Virus record (IMG/VR): IMGVR_UViG_2645728048_000025
Source: a virus
Taxonomy: Duplodnaviria > Heunggongvirae > Uroviricota > Caudoviricetes
Strand: one strand, 5' to 3'
Length of the DNA: 15,946 nucleotides
Shown piece by piece: positions 1,393 to 8,164 of the stretch. Positions within the stretch are counted from its first letter, which is position 1; each line of letters opens with the position of its first letter. Made by a program: the position numbers and the translations under genes. A model generated the notes under the pieces. It did not search any database, was not told where the DNA came from, and worked only from the letters and a program-made list of their open reading frames with translations.

Positions 1393-2114
1393 TAAGCAGC
1401 CTCCCCTGTTACTTTCAGCATTCTGTTATCGAGCAGCTTTCTGGTCAGCCACTGTTGACCACGCCCGGTGATTTTTGTGGTGAACGATATCTGTATTCCG
1501 TGATTTGTGTTGACCGCTGTTTCTTTCACTGTGAAATAGCCGCGCTCCATATATTCCTGCATTGGCACATTGCGCCGGGAACCTGAAGCAATAAGGATTT
1601 TGTGATCGCGCATCCACGCAAACAGTTTGTTTGGACCAATTCCAACAACCTTTGCAAAGTTTCCAATCAAAATTCCGCTGGCCTCGCCAACGCGATCGGC
1701 AAACTCAACTTTAGGTGCGACAATTGCGAGCTGGTTTTCCAGTTGCATTTTCTGCTCAGCAAGATCGGCAGCAAGGCGCAACGCTTCCGGTAGCGTTTTG
1801 GGGATATTAACCGCAGCTTCTTCAAGATCTCGCCAGCGGTCAACAAGGCGAGCGGTGAACTCTGGCGACAACTGGGCAACAACGACAATACTGTCTCGCT
1901 TACCTTGTTCGCCCTCGAAGACGTAATGCTCGTACTGAACATTGAACCCTAAGTTATTGATTCTTTCGGAAACCTCAATTTGAGGAAGCCGGATAACACC
2001 ATTTTTAGCCAGCGTTTCTATGGTACGTTTCACATTGTCATGGCGCTTACCCACCAACTCAGCGATTTCAATGCTTGTCATTTTGATGGCATTGCCATTT
2101 ATTAACTCATTCAT
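1392..2114 (-). CDS. Phage regulatory protein, Rha-family N-terminal domain with KilAC-type antirepressor C-terminal domain
   Basis: 240-aa ORF; N-terminus MTSIEIAELVGKRHDNVKRTIETL resembles Rha-family regulators; C-terminal half (GNFAKVVGIGPNKLFAWMRDHKILIA...) resembles KilAC antirepressor domains. Start overlaps the NinF-like stop. Confidence 0.75.
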   Translation of the reverse strand: MNELINGNAIKMTSIEIAELVGKRHDNVKRTIETLAKNGVIRLPQIEVSERINNLGFNVQYEHYVFEGEQGKRDSIVVVAQLSPEFTARLVDRWRDLEEAAVNIPKTLPEALRLAADLAEQKMQLENQLAIVAPKVEFADRVGEASGILIGNFAKVVGIGPNKLFAWMRDHKILIASGSRRNVPMQEYMERGYFTVKETAVNTNHGIQISFTTKITGRGQQWLTRKLLDNRMLKVTGEAA

Positions 2115-4326: not shown

Positions 4327-5763
4327 TCAGAATCCTCCTTTCTTCTTGGACTGCGGTTCCTCGCGTTCACGGCGGCGCATTTCAGCAGACTGTTGGTCTG
4401 TGTCATAAATAGCGCCATTTGCCTGTATGCAATACACCGTGCCGGTATTGCCATGACGATTGAGGCGAAGGATTAGTTCGGTTTCACCAGGAGGAACGCT
4501 GTCATCAAAAGCACCTTCACGATGGATCCCCACCCAATAATCGCAATCCTGTTCAATCTGCCCTGTATCTCGTGAGTCACTTGGTAATGGGCGTTTATTG
4601 GTTCGGCTTTCCAGTGCGCGGTTAAGCTGTGTCAGAAGCACAACAACGCAATCAAGCTCTTTGGCAAGGTTCTTCAGTCCTTTGGTGATCATGCCGTAAG
4701 CAAGGTCGTTGCGATCGGCCTTCTCAGCAGTCATTAGTGTCAGGTAATCGACCAGAATCATGCCAACACATCCTTTTTCTCGCTTGATTCGACGGCTTTC
4801 GCTGACGATTTGAGCCAGAGATAATCCCGGCGTGTCGTCGATGTAAAGCAGGTCGATTTCACTCAAGCGATTGGCTGTTTCGATCGCCCTGTTGAAGTCA
4901 CCATCGTAATCACCCTGATAGCCGTCATCAGCGTCATTTGTCGCCGGAAGGTAAAAAATATTCGGGTTAACACCTGACTTCTGTCCCACCAGTTTTTCCA
5001 GTATCTGGTCACCTGGCATTTCAAGGCTGAACATCAGAGCGGGCTTTTTCTCATGCACTGCACAGTTGATTGCCATCTGGCTGTATAGCGTCGTTTTCCC
5101 CATCTTAGGGCGAGCGCCAATGACAAACAAAGAGCCTTTCACCAGACCTTTCGGTGACAGCATCCTGTCCAGCGATGGGATCCCTGTGCTCATTCCCCGT
5201 TGTTCGCCTGATGGGTCAAATCGCTTCTCAAGGTCGCTAACCCAGTCTTCCATGACCTCACCAAATGAGCGAAGGCCGCGACGCGATCCGGTTTTTGCAT
5301 GGTCTGTCAGTTGCGTGAAAATCGCCTGAATAGCTTCGTACTTCTGCGTTGCAGTCATTCCATTGCGGGAATAGAGCAATTCCGTCGCTTCAGTCATGCG
5401 GTTGATGGCGTAGCGTTCCATTGCGGTTTCACGAACCTGCATTGCATAGGCAACGATGTTTGCTGCGCTTGGCGTGTTCTTTGCGATCTCAGCGATATAA
5501 GCAAAACCGCCAACAGACGCCGTTAACGATTTACGCTCCAGTTCATCGAAAAGCGTCAGGCCATCTACTGGCTTTTGCTCCCGGTGCATTCTGGTTATTT
5601 CTTCGAAAAGGATTTTGTGTGGTCGGCCGTAAAATGAATCAGGCTTCAGCATCGCCAGAACTTTCTGGACGCGCTCACTGCTGTCATCATCCAGAAGCAA
5701 TCCACCAATCACCGCCTGCTCTGCCTCGATGCTATGGGGCGGCGCATAAAAATTATCGGTCAT
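4327..5763 (-). CDS. Replicative DNA helicase, DnaB family (P22 gene 12-like)
   Basis: Walker A GARPKMGKTT and DnaB-like layout over about 478 aa. ATG at 5763 (MTDNFYAPPH) preceded by GAGGGTGAA is preferred over the track's GTG start at 5778; it overlaps the O-like stop by 11 nt. Confidence 0.88.
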   Translation of the reverse strand: MTDNFYAPPHSIEAEQAVIGGLLLDDDSSERVQKVLAMLKPDSFYGRPHKILFEEITRMHREQKPVDGLTLFDELERKSLTASVGGFAYIAEIAKNTPSAANIVAYAMQVRETAMERYAINRMTEATELLYSRNGMTATQKYEAIQAIFTQLTDHAKTGSRRGLRSFGEVMEDWVSDLEKRFDPSGEQRGMSTGIPSLDRMLSPKGLVKGSLFVIGARPKMGKTTLYSQMAINCAVHEKKPALMFSLEMPGDQILEKLVGQKSGVNPNIFYLPATNDADDGYQGDYDGDFNRAIETANRLSEIDLLYIDDTPGLSLAQIVSESRRIKREKGCVGMILVDYLTLMTAEKADRNDLAYGMITKGLKNLAKELDCVVVLLTQLNRALESRTNKRPLPSDSRDTGQIEQDCDYWVGIHREGAFDDSVPPGETELILRLNRHGNTGTVYCIQANGAIYDTDQQSAEMRRREREEPQSKKKGGF

Positions 5764-6514
5764 CGTGTTCACCCTCACGAACTTTCAGGTAGGTATTATC
5801 GTTAAGCAGGAAATCAAATCCCTTTTTGTGCCAGACGGTTCCGCGATGATGGTTTGGGCGCTCTTCGAACATCCATCGGCAATTTTCGCCTACGTAGCTC
5901 AAATAATTTCTCCAGTCCTGCATCGTGAACCCATGCCCGTCAAGCTGGCGGGTTATCACTCCGGCTTTGCGCCAGAACGTTCGGATCTGGTTTTTACGCT
6001 TGTCATTCAGTGCGCGGATTCTTGGCGCTTCAGGAAGGATTTCGTGGTAAGCATCGACAACATCCTGACAGCTAACGGAAGGTTTTTTCTTGTCAGACTT
6101 TTTGTCTGCTGTGGCACTCTCTAATACGTCAGTATTAGAGATATTATTTATATTATTGTTTATGGACAACCGTTGGACAACCGTTGGACAATTTTTTGCC
6201 TGAAAATCGTCATATTTAACGATTGTAAACAGGCTAAATTTCTTCCCCATCGAGCAAATATTAAGCATCCCTTTCGACTCAAAAGTCCGTAATAAGCTCC
6301 GAACTTTGTTGTCGGGGATGAATGTTTCTCTGACCAGCGACGGGCGTCCAGTTATCATCTGACCGCGATCAACAGTTATCGGACCGATATCCGTATTGAC
6401 GACAGTAGATTCGTGATTAGCCTTGAGGATTAAGTGAAGCCAAAGATGTACTGCCTGAGAGTCCTTATAGAGCCTGCTGTCCATAAACTGGCGGTGTATA
6501 GAGACATACCCCAT
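5753..6514 (-). CDS. Replication initiator, lambda O-like / P22 gene 18-like
   Basis: Start chosen at MGYVSIHRQFMDSRLYKDSQAVHLWLHLILKA (ATG 6514 preceded by CAGGAGG), a typical replication-protein-O N-terminal domain. An Asn/Ile-rich linker (SINNNINNISN) is encoded by the AT-rich ori segment. It sits upstream of the helicase. Confidence 0.8.
   Translation of the reverse strand: MGYVSIHRQFMDSRLYKDSQAVHLWLHLILKANHESTVVNTDIGPITVDRGQMITGRPSLVRETFIPDNKVRSLLRTFESKGMLNICSMGKKFSLFTIVKYDDFQAKNCPTVVQRLSINNNINNISNTDVLESATADKKSDKKKPSVSCQDVVDAYHEILPEAPRIRALNDKRKNQIRTFWRKAGVITRQLDGHGFTMQDWRNYLSYVGENCRWMFEERPNHHRGTVWHKKGFDFLLNDNTYLKVREGEHDDR
6118..6195. repeat. Candidate origin of replication inside the O-like gene: palindrome, AT-rich tract, 11-bp iterons
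   Basis: 24-bp perfect palindrome TCTCTAATAC-gtca-GTATTAGAGA (6118-6141); AT-rich tract 6141-6162; tandem TGGACAACCGT at 6163-6173 and 6174-6184 plus a partial third copy TGGACAATTTT (6185-6195). Confidence 0.55.
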
Positions 6515-6563
6515 ACTGGATGCCTCCTGATGTTGTACAGGGTTATGCCTGTAATCAGCTAAC

Positions 6564-6725
6564 TTAACGACGCCCATGTTTCACTCCTGCTTTGGCTAGT
6601 CTGTAAACACCAACAAGGCGCTCTGCGAACGCCCTGTTATTTGCTGCGGCTACCACTAATCCCTCAGGTGAATCAGGGTGTCGAATCTCTTCTTTTTCCT
6701 GGTATTTCTTACGACGTTTTGTCAT
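6564..6725 (-). CDS. Small basic ORF (53 aa) between cII and the O-like gene; uncertain
   Basis: MTKRRKKYQEKEEIRHPDSPEGLVVAAANNRAFAERLVGVYRLAKAGVKHGRR with AGGAG 5 nt upstream of the ATG. Its start codon coincides with a CATAAT -10-like hexamer on the opposite strand, so the interval may be regulatory instead. Confidence 0.3.
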   Translation of the reverse strand: MTKRRKKYQEKEEIRHPDSPEGLVVAAANNRAFAERLVGVYRLAKAGVKHGRR

Positions 6726-6759
6726 AATTACTCCTGTGGATTGATCCAGTCTTTCTACA

Positions 6760-7038
6760 TCAGGCCTCGAAGAATTCGCCGTTCTTCGGGGCTTTTTCTT
6801 TTGTCAGCATTCTGGCTACTTTCTTAGCCAGTTCCGCCAACTCCTCGTCTTCAACACCCCATTCAAGAACAGCAAGAAGCATTCCCATTTTGGGGATGAA
6901 GCTGTCTTTCCATCGAGAAATTTGCGATTCATTAATCCCTAACGCGTCGGCAACCTTTCGCTGACCACGTACAGCAATTCGATTCAGGATGTTGCTTGTA
7001 ATTGCATTCGCTTTCTTGCGAGTACTTGTAAGTTCCAT
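6760..7038 (-). CDS. cII: CII transcriptional activator (lambda cII / P22 c1 homologue, 92 aa)
   Basis: From the internal ATG (MELTSTRKKANAITSNILNRIAVRGQRKVADALGINESQISRWKDSFIPKMGMLLAVLEWGV...); the ESQISRWK ... MLLAVLEWGV stretch matches lambda CII as I recall it. Confidence 0.85.
   Translation of the reverse strand: MELTSTRKKANAITSNILNRIAVRGQRKVADALGINESQISRWKDSFIPKMGMLLAVLEWGVEDEELAELAKKVARMLTKEKAPKNGEFFEA
6767..6802 (+). terminator. Plus-strand intrinsic terminator inside the 3' end of cII (antisense), OOP-RNA-like
   Basis: Stem CGAAGAA / TTCTTCG (6768-6774 / 6782-6788) with a 7-nt loop, then GGGC and TTTTTCTTTT. Antisense to the cII 3' end, the position of the OOP terminator in lambda. 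Confidence 0.45.
6992..7005 (+). promoter_or_regulatory. CII-binding motif TTGC-N6-TTGC, candidate PRE -35 region (transcription towards cI)
   Basis: TTGC (6992-6995), ttgtaa, TTGC (7002-7005) on the plus strand within the 5' part of the cII coding region, the arrangement of PRE in lambda. Confidence 0.45.
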
Positions 7039-7146: not shown

Positions 7147-7341
7147 CTATTTGTTTTTCTTGTTGCTTGGGAAAGGACGAACTTCCTCTCCAATCACACT
7201 GCCATCAGGCTTTACCGTAACCATGATGTTACGGCCTGCCAGAATGGCCTTGCTGATAGCGCACTGGATTACACCAAAGTCACTGGCTGCTTTAGCCTGT
7301 CCATGGATTTTGGCGTAATCGGCAAGTGTCATTCGAATCAT
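7147..7341 (-). CDS. cro: Cro repressor (64 aa)
   Basis: [62 protein letters not shown], collinear with lambda Cro (C-terminal FPSNKK). ATG at 7341 preceded by GGAGAG. Confidence 0.85.
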
Positions 7342-7370
7342 ATGCACTCTCCGTTATTAACCATGAACAA

Positions 7371-7447: not shown

Positions 7448-8164
7448 ATGGAAAATAAAAAATCACTGACGACAGAACAGCTCGAAGACGCTAAGCGGCT
7501 TAAGGCTTTGTATGAGTCAAAAAAGAAAGAATTGGGAATAACCCAATACTCAATCGCTGATGAACTGGGTATCACCCAAGGAGCGGTAGGGCATTATCTT
7601 AATGGCAGAAACGCGCTAAACGTTGAGGTTGCATCTGGTTTTGCACGATTGTTGCAAGTCTCAATTGCTGATTTTAGCCAGTCAATTGCTGCCAAGGTTG
7701 CAGAACAGGCAGAAAGCCTTAAGAGCGATGCCAACGTAAGGTATGCAGGGGAATACAGAGCAGGAAAGAGGTATCCGGTGTTAAGCAGTATCCAGGCTGG
7801 CTCGTGGTGTGAAGCATGCGAACCATACACCATTAAAGACATAGATGTTTGGCTTGAGTCTGACGCGCATATTCAAGGTAATGCGTTCTGGCTTAAAGTG
7901 GAAGGTGATTCAATGACGGCACCGGTTGGGTTAAGCATTCCAGAGGGAACATTCGTTCTTTTCGATACCGGAAGGGAGGCGATCAACGGCAGCTTGGTCA
8001 TAGCAAAACTTTCTGACTCTAACGAAGCAACATTCAAGAAGCTGATAATCGACGGCGGAAATAAATACCTCAAGGGACTTAATCCTGCATGGCCTCTCGT
8101 GCCAATCAATGGAAACTGCAAGATTATAGGCGTTGCAATTGAGACAAAACTAAGGCTGGTTTGA
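7448..8164 (+). CDS. cI: CI repressor (HTH N-terminal domain plus S24 LexA-like autopeptidase domain)
   Basis: HTH region (ITQYSIADELGITQGAVGHYLNG), putative Ala-Gly cleavage site in YPVLSSIQAGSW, catalytic Ser in EGDSM and Lys in FKKL; collinear with lambda CI. Confidence 0.9.
   Translation: MENKKSLTTEQLEDAKRLKALYESKKKELGITQYSIADELGITQGAVGHYLNGRNALNVEVASGFARLLQVSIADFSQSIAAKVAEQAESLKSDANVRYAGEYRAGKRYPVLSSIQAGSWCEACEPYTIKDIDVWLESDAHIQGNAFWLKVEGDSMTAPVGLSIPEGTFVLFDTGREAINGSLVIAKLSDSNEATFKKLIIDGGNKYLKGLNPAWPLVPINGNCKIIGVAIETKLRLV

Follow-up and report, generated by a model that had tools for sequence, protein, structure and literature searches.

A probable pO/oop/tO module of a lambdoid phage shares its DNA with a 53-codon gene between cII and the O-like gene

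The 15,946-nt stretch of DNA analyzed here (hereafter the window) very probably carries, on its plus strand at positions 6700–6802, a lambdoid pO/oop/tO module of the P22/BTP1 sequence type, and this module shares its DNA with a real 53-codon gene on the minus strand. The OOP arrangement as such is already known, being annotated in P22 and seen by RNA-seq in near-identical phages. The evidence presented below on homology, structure, conservation, strand bias and coding selection comes from our own analysis, and the transcripts of P22 and BTP1 are taken from the literature; from these we infer promoter activity in this exact context, an RNase III mechanism and an effect on lysogeny. The first-pass annotation of this DNA held that the presence of an antisense RNA or of a small gene could not be judged from sequence alone, which proved too pessimistic, as comparative sequence analysis settles most of the question. 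The uncertainty that remains is quantitative and concerns the activity of pO with a weak −35 element and the physiological weight of OOP.

Results

Gene order of the window

The window comprises the immunity and replication region of a lambdoid E. coli phage or prophage with a mosaic genome (Table 1). It is 97–99% identical piecewise to mEpX2, HK620, Sf6 and HK542, with no single record matching throughout. The O-like gene begins at 6577, a start found in the Sf6 and mEpX2 annotations and obtained by gene calling in every related locus, and overlaps the end of the small open reading frame (ORF) that follows cII by 14 nt. For this reason the cII-to-O interval, bounded downstream by the O-like start, spans 182 bp (6578–6759) and not the 245 bp given in the first-pass annotation.

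Several further features of the flanking genes were observed. The O-like protein has 274 aa in the window and 296 aa in Sf6 and mEpX2. Its gene contains an iteron-like 11-bp tandem repeat, TGGACAACCGT, in 2.6 copies, at the position of the ori annotated in Sf6 and HK620. A second element of the gene is a hairpin of 10 perfect base pairs whose tail is AT-rich, and the intervals noted for these elements are 6118–6141 and 6163–6191. At the 5′ end of cII there are two candidate CII-binding repeats, at 6992–7005 and 7016–7029. In mEpX2 the annotated CII site is TTGC-N6-TTGC, in Sf6 TTGC-N6-TTGT is marked as the pRE site for c1/CII, and the two annotations conflict over which repeat is the true one.

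Table 1. Genes and predicted regulatory features of the window discussed in the text.
Feature	Position	Strand	Basis or description
DnaB-like helicase	4327–5778	minus	
O-like replication initiator, next gene of the pR operon	5753–6577	minus	PHROG_345, E = 5e-80; annotations in relatives
53-codon ORF	6564–6725	minus	Sf6 gene 42/HK97 gp53/ES18 gp58 family, PHROG_1331
−35-like hexamer TGGTAT	6700–6705	plus	17-nt spacer to −10; TTGACA match 2/6, weak
Predicted extended −10, TGTCATAAT	6720–6728	plus	homologous to lambda pO −10; P22 "promoter oop" ends on the same hexamer
Palindrome CTGT-N8-CCAG, LexA-box-like candidate	6732–6751	strand-neutral	within the conserved core (Sf6 bsq5)
Predicted OOP-like antisense RNA, 63–66 nt	6736–6801	plus	lambda and P22 homology
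5′ stem-loop	6736–6758	plus	6736–6740 paired with 6754–6758, plus a small inner helix
Predicted intrinsic terminator, tO homologue	6762–6802	plus	14-bp hairpin 6762–6775/6781–6794 + T-tract
cII (P22 c1-type)	6760–7038	minus	Pfam Phage_CII, E = 1.2e-42; PHROG_191; annotations of relatives
cro	7147–7347	minus	Pfam Cro
cI	7448–8164	plus	

A predicted antisense RNA ends at an intrinsic terminator within cII

In a terminator scan of a 3-kb region, the plus-strand hairpin 6762–6794 ranks first; its stem has 14 pairs, 6 being G-C, its loop measures 5 nt, and TTTCTTTTGT comes after it. The T-tract at 6793–6802 is composed of a T-run (6793–6797), a C and a second T-run (6799–6802). Given the position of cII on the minus strand, hairpin and T-tract cover the cII stop codon and the last 13 codons. 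A stem-loop with T-tract antisense to the end of cII had been noted at 6767–6802; the element is indeed present, but its start lies 5 nt earlier, at 6762.

The predicted RNA is convergent with pR, is located between the 3′ end of cII and the next rightward gene and is antisense to the cII 3′ end, with an overlap of 42 nt (6760–6801) in which the last 42 nt of cII are complementary to it. Its 5′ end is placed at 6736 by homology to the +1 of lambda OOP, or at 6739 by the sequenced P22 oop RNA, and its 3′ end at about 6801. In the latter case the evidence is a 2026 small-RNA-seq study of P22 infection reporting a 63-nt P22C-oop RNA, GAUUGAUCCAGUCUUUCUACAUCAGGCCUCAAAACUGUUCCCGCAGUCUUGAGGCUUUUCUUU, i.e., GAUUGAUCCAG...GGCUUUUCUUU (PMC13397905), whose ends correspond to window 6739 and about 6801, so that the length of 65–70 nt and the end near 6800 proposed earlier were accurate. 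As RNA, 6736–6802 folds at −27.2 kcal/mol, as compared with −13.8 ± 2.8 kcal/mol for shuffled sequences (z = −4.9; 0/200 shuffles as stable), and the terminator portion folded alone gives z = −4.1. The reverse strand folds at −17.9 kcal/mol (z = −3.4 against shuffles) and has no T-tract after the stem.

A search of Rfam with the predicted RNA returned no match at the gathering score and only chance-level matches at E ≤ 1. This negative result is uninformative, because in a control search of Rfam 15 lambda's own oop region (lambda 38200–39000), like that of P22, also returned nothing relevant; apparently Rfam 15 contains no OOP family.

The terminator hairpin is retained and strand-biased in 132 loci

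A BLAST search with window 6690–6815 as the query shows that only a core of ~33 bp is common to the phages found, which include lambda, P22, HK022, 933W, VT2-Sakai and Klebsiella and Yersinia phages, and that the cII 3′ ends and the gene after cII differ among them. Scanning viral contigs for the pattern brought in a further 120 loci, and 132 loci with enough flank were compared; the conservation of the core in this set is partly by construction, since the loci were gathered with a pattern that fixes the core. When terminators were located by a hairpin-anchored search, a hairpin of −14 to −23 kcal/mol was found in 132/132 loci, ending 56–77 nt after the inferred +1, with at least 41 distinct hairpin-plus-tail sequences among them. 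A strict T-rich tail follows in 118 of the 132, and in the other 14, a Klebsiella class, the hairpin is followed by GCCTTT(T/C), a weaker tail. Because the hairpin lies within coding sequence, part of its conservation is protein-driven. Among 78 distinct sequences, the oop strand is the more stable fold in 70, and G-U pairs account for 224/1415 pairs on the oop strand versus 40/1233 on the mRNA strand; a G-U pair on the oop strand is an A-C mismatch on the mRNA. By both measures the structure is strand-specific.

Alignment of 28 short-class RNAs with MAFFT, followed by RNAalifold, recovered the 5′ helix alone, and the terminator was missed because differences in loop length put its arms out of register. 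A covariance model (R1) was built from these 28 sequences and matches the window once, at 6736–6801 on the plus strand with 78 bits, a match that speaks for uniqueness in the window and is not independent support, because the window's own sequence is among the 28. In the model alignment, which is fitted to the model, mixes length classes and thus serves as supporting evidence only, changes on both sides are seen in 16 of the 24 pairs. The observed values are reached by 0/500 shuffles in four of five measures and by 7/500 in the fifth (further pair types), and every slid register scores lower. In the outer helix of the 5′ stem-loop, relatives likewise show changes on both sides, e.g., G-C to A-U at the fourth pair.

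A predicted pO-like promoter with a conserved 17-nt spacing

The hexamer CATAAT at 6723–6728 is directly preceded by TGT, which makes it a TGn extended −10. Promoters of the TGn extended −10 type need little −35. Window 6718–6749, TTGTCATAATTACTCCTGTGGATTGATCCAGT, is identical in 29/32 positions to the lambda oop strand, TTGTCATAATGACTCCTGTTGATAGATCCAGT, the extended −10 and the +1 G included. The mapped 5′ G of the 77-nt lambda OOP RNA (position 38675) lies 7 nt after the lambda hexamer and aligns with window 6736; a −10 at the lambda CATAAT fits this distance. The curated P22 genome (BK000583) carries a "promoter oop; similar to phage lambda" and a "terminator oop; similar to phage lambda" at homologous positions, the terminator overlapping the 3′ end of c1. 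In P22-like prophage BTP1, RNA-seq led to the annotation of OOP-BTP1, an ncRNA on the strand opposite the 3′ end of cII (Owen et al. 2020, PMC7067206), and from the inferred +1 to the T-tract the BTP1 sequence (NC_042346) differs from the window in a single base, +3 G to T. The proposal that CATAAT serves as the −10 of a short antisense RNA is thus supported by lambda pO homology, P22 annotation, RNA-seq of P22 and BTP1 and the 132 loci.

The −35 element is less well matched. The corresponding hexamers are TGGTAT in the window, TGGTCA in P22 and BTP1, TGGTAA in HK022 and TTGAGT in lambda, and the output of a simple consensus promoter scan does not contain the pO-like site. What is retained is the geometry, with T[GT]Gnnn-17-(−10) present in the window and likewise in ES18, P22, BTP1, HK022, lambda and six divergent loci. 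TGn precedes the −10 in 116/132 loci, a T[TG]G-initial hexamer is found 17 nt upstream of the −10 in most of the 132, whatever gene lies opposite, and TGGTAT-17-CATAAT is the commonest single arrangement (33/132). Judged as a sigma-70 promoter, the site therefore combines a good extended −10, a −35 of 2/6 and a negative scan with a 17-nt geometry conserved across contexts, and the latter argues for a functional predicted pO. The weak −35 is the main caveat, which the TGn extended −10 partly offsets. Promoter strength in the present context, upstream of a gp53-type small ORF (see below), can only be gauged indirectly, because the phages with RNA evidence, P22 and BTP1, have an orf48-type upstream region with the better −35 TGGTCA.

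Six divergent gp53-type loci, from Enterobacter, Citrobacter and Lelliottia-type assemblies, bear on this point. Their core sequence is different, and they keep TGG(T/C)nn-17-(TAAAAT, TAGAAT, TAAGAT or CATTAT). Where the N-terminus of the ORF is one codon shorter, the −10 is displaced by 3 nt, so that the 17-nt spacing is preserved by a compensating shift. A new 5′ hairpin (TGTGTT...AACACA) and a terminator are present in 5/6 of these loci as scored (L134–L141, about 1440–1510, minus strand); in the sixth (L136), the RNA was truncated by the T-tract rule, and its sequence does show a hairpin followed by a weaker T tail. This geometry supports a working promoter in the gp53-type context, an interpretation that is confounded by coding conservation of the Y/D-Q codons beneath the −35.

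The 53-codon ORF is conserved as a protein

On the minus strand, the small ORF starts at an ATG (6725–6723) with a Shine-Dalgarno (SD) sequence AGGAG at 6735–6731, 5 nt upstream, in agreement with its earlier description as a well-primed ORF of 53 aa. It matches PHROG_1331 over its full length (E = 1.4e-37, residues 1–53 of 53), and no Pfam or NCBIfam family is matched. Homologues of 51–55 aa with 62–98% identity occur across Enterobacteriaceae and show in-frame two-codon indels and a conserved helical core, and in all eight fetched loci the small ORF lies between cII-like and O-like genes. Pairwise dN/dS against divergent copies is 0.09–0.25, with substitutions concentrated at third codon positions. 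In an AlphaFold model of low-to-medium confidence (pLDDT 69), the N-terminus is basic and disordered, and residues 20–46 form a two-helix hairpin. On these comparative grounds, the small ORF is evidently a real protein-coding gene under clear purifying selection.

The 3′ end of the small ORF overlaps the start of the O-like gene by 14 nt (6564–6577), ATGGGCGTCGTTAA, and across the eight loci this overlap is invariant as ATGGGCGTCGTTA(A/G). These loci are only about 70% identical elsewhere. The invariant overlap suggests that translation of the O-like gene is coupled to that of the small ORF.

The slot between cII and O holds two small-ORF families, an orf48-type of 47–49 aa (P22, at 564–710 of the P22 locus L005; HK022; HK620; BTP1) and a gp53-type of 53 aa (the window, Sf6, ES18, HK97). 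Homology between the two was considered and rejected (hhalign probability 1.8%). Both families begin with M[TP]K....[YD]Q, the stretch that lies over pO −10 to −35 of the other strand. In the RefSeq re-annotation, the orf48-type ORF is called "tail protein" (NC_002730, HK620 hkaW; NC_028696; NC_018275; NC_008464), a label that looks like a propagated annotation error.

The predicted −10 element and the start codon of the small gene coexist

As the first-pass annotation had noticed, the small ORF has its start codon in the reverse complement of CATAAT, CAT at 6723–6725 lying opposite its ATG. This had been taken as a conflict, such that the interval would encode either a small protein or a regulatory element, and that dichotomy is false. 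The lambda CATAAT, the pO −10, likewise mirrors the ATG of the O gene, so the layout is the normal one, and the oop promoter annotated in P22 overlaps the start of orf48, the small ORF between c1 and gene 18. In the window, both elements coexist, because the small ORF is under clear purifying selection. A −10 that overlaps an opposite-strand start codon is therefore a normal shared-sequence arrangement and gives no ground to discard either feature.

A candidate LexA-like site lies at the boundary

The palindrome at 6732–6751 extends across both the inferred start of OOP and the SD that serves the small ORF. It has the best LexA-like score in the whole 15.9-kb window, with a heterology index of 13.0 as against 9.7 for the lambda homologue, both computed with a hand-entered matrix, and as a candidate LexA site it appears borderline. 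In lambda, a LexA site lies within oop-pO (PMC5869508). We tentatively suggest, with more doubt than confidence, that the ~33-bp core is conserved across lambdoid mosaics because it serves three purposes, supplying the RBS and ATG for whichever gene follows, containing the extended −10 as well as the +1 of pO, and acting as a LexA-type operator, and that the pO −35 constrains the first 8–9 codons of two unrelated small proteins. If so, the promoter would shape protein N-termini and keep the junction recombination-competent.

Discussion

Alternative explanations

Two other readings deny the promoter a role. The window might hold a silent or decayed OOP copy, whose terminator and −10 were inherited with the cII module and whose weak gp53-type −35 yields little or no RNA. 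This is in keeping with a −35 of 2/6 and a promoter scan without the site, and with direct RNA evidence that comes from the orf48-type upstream context only. We nevertheless consider it unlikely, as TGn extended −10 promoters depend little on the −35, the TGGTAT-17-CATAAT arrangement is the commonest of all (33/132), divergent gp53-type loci hold the 17-nt geometry via a compensating −10 shift, and the terminator is without decay. Alternatively, the interval might be purely coding, with CATAAT no more than a by-product of an AT-rich SD–ATG spacer and the ATG itself. Any ATTATG entails a CATAAT on the opposite strand, and the small ORF is genuine; but the hexamer and the following 26 nt are kept before unrelated genes (lambda-type O, orf48, gp53 type and others), a terminator always lies downstream at a fixed distance, and the hexamer is that of lambda pO, which is inactivated by a mutation of its −10 (PMC3985674). 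A purely coding interval is accordingly extremely improbable.

The reverse case, in which the interval serves regulation alone and the 53-codon ORF is an accidental frame without translation, is credited with just as little. That the ORF matches no Pfam or NCBIfam family and that its model has only moderate confidence (pLDDT 69) speak for this view, yet dN/dS of 0.09–0.25 with a third-position bias, in-frame indels with a length of 51–55 aa kept across genera, a strong SD, the conserved 14-nt overlap with O and the full-length PHROG_1331 match all indicate a translated gene. It is also very improbable that the hairpin acts only on the minus-strand pR mRNA, e.g., in the processing or stability of this mRNA at the junction of cII with the following gene, with an incidental resemblance to a terminator on the plus strand. 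The minus strand does fold better than shuffles (z = −3.4) and the hairpin is located at a gene boundary of the pR operon; against this, the plus strand is more stable in 70/78 variants, G-U pairs are five-fold enriched on it, the T-tract follows the stem on this strand only, and P22 RNAs that end at the T-tract have been sequenced. The combined pO/oop/tO module and small gene thus remain the preferred reading.

Proposed mechanism

Taken together with what is known of lambda, this reading would imply the following mechanism. A constitutive sigma-70 promoter with the extended −10 TGTCATAAT (6720–6728) and the weak −35 TGGTAT (6700–6705) would start at ~6736–6739, convergent with the rightward pR operon. 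The transcript would form a small 5′ stem-loop and then stop at the intrinsic terminator (6762–6794 and the T-tract to 6802), giving an RNA of ~63–66 nt. Complementary throughout to the last 13 codons of cII, its stop codon and the 24-nt spacer beyond, this RNA could form a perfect duplex of 63–66 bp. In lambda, transcription of OOP runs from pO to tO; the RNA has an overlap of 52 nt with cII and suppresses CII activities, and cleavage of the cII-mRNA:OOP hybrid depends on RNase III (PMC5869508, PMC3985674). The RNase III-dependent down-regulation of lambda cII goes back to Krinke and Wulff (1987, 1990), as cited in PMC7067206, PMC5869508, PMC3985674 and PMC2327240. By analogy, the duplex with the pR transcript might be cut by RNase III, leaving less cII and shifting the phage toward lytic growth. 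In lambda, pO activity also modulates pR read-through and ori-lambda replication through convergent transcription (PMC3985674), and in the window a promoter firing against pR may likewise damp read-through into the replication genes. The other strand of the same DNA provides the RBS and ATG of the 53-codon gene, so that the two functions share the sequence and do not compete for it. Because OOP has at most a minor role in CII removal after SOS induction in lambda (PMC2327240), the physiological weight of the mechanism is expected to be modest.

Beyond annotation, the consequence of these findings is small, given that OOP is a textbook antisense RNA and that its P22/BTP1-type homologue is published. 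The mEpX2, Sf6 and HK620 records leave the oop promoter and terminator unannotated. The present data would also support an Rfam OOP family, the members of which have two hairpins, fall into at least three length classes and include many compensated terminators.

Comparison with known systems

The Sf6 "boundary sequence" bsq5 (AF547987) equals window 6718–6750, precisely the conserved core in which the −10 and the start site lie together with SD and ATG; it differs from the present interpretation in that this core is annotated only as a recombination boundary and not as the oop promoter. In the mEpX2 and HK620 records, the core region carries no annotation, and a literature search on boundary sequences returned unrelated mycobacteriophage papers only.

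The predicted element resembles lambda OOP in its setting: the unit is convergent with pR, begins immediately upstream of the gene after cII and stops inside the 3′ end of cII. It also has an identical extended −10 that lies over the ATG of the next gene, a nearly identical first ~15 nt of RNA, two stem-loops of which the second is an intrinsic terminator, and a LexA-box-like palindrome at the start site. It differs from lambda OOP in the length of the RNA (~63–66 nt versus 77 nt), in its 5′ stem (5 bp versus ~11 bp) and in its terminator, the sequence of which is unrelated. Its overlap with cII is 42 nt as opposed to 52 nt, the gene opposite is the 53-codon ORF in the window and O in lambda, and the −35 TGGTAT is weaker than the TTGAGT of lambda.

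The likeness to oop of P22 and BTP1 is closer. These RNAs belong to the same short two-hairpin class and share the 5′ part, BTP1 being one base off, and the terminator of P22 oop is a compensated variant of the hairpin in the window. In both phages, as in the window, a small ORF separates c1/cII from the replication gene and has its start overlapped by the promoter; in P22 and BTP1 this ORF is of the orf48 type (48 aa) and not detectably related to the 53-aa ORF. Because the small ORF is of a different type, the sequence upstream of −14, the −35 included, differs between the window and P22/BTP1.
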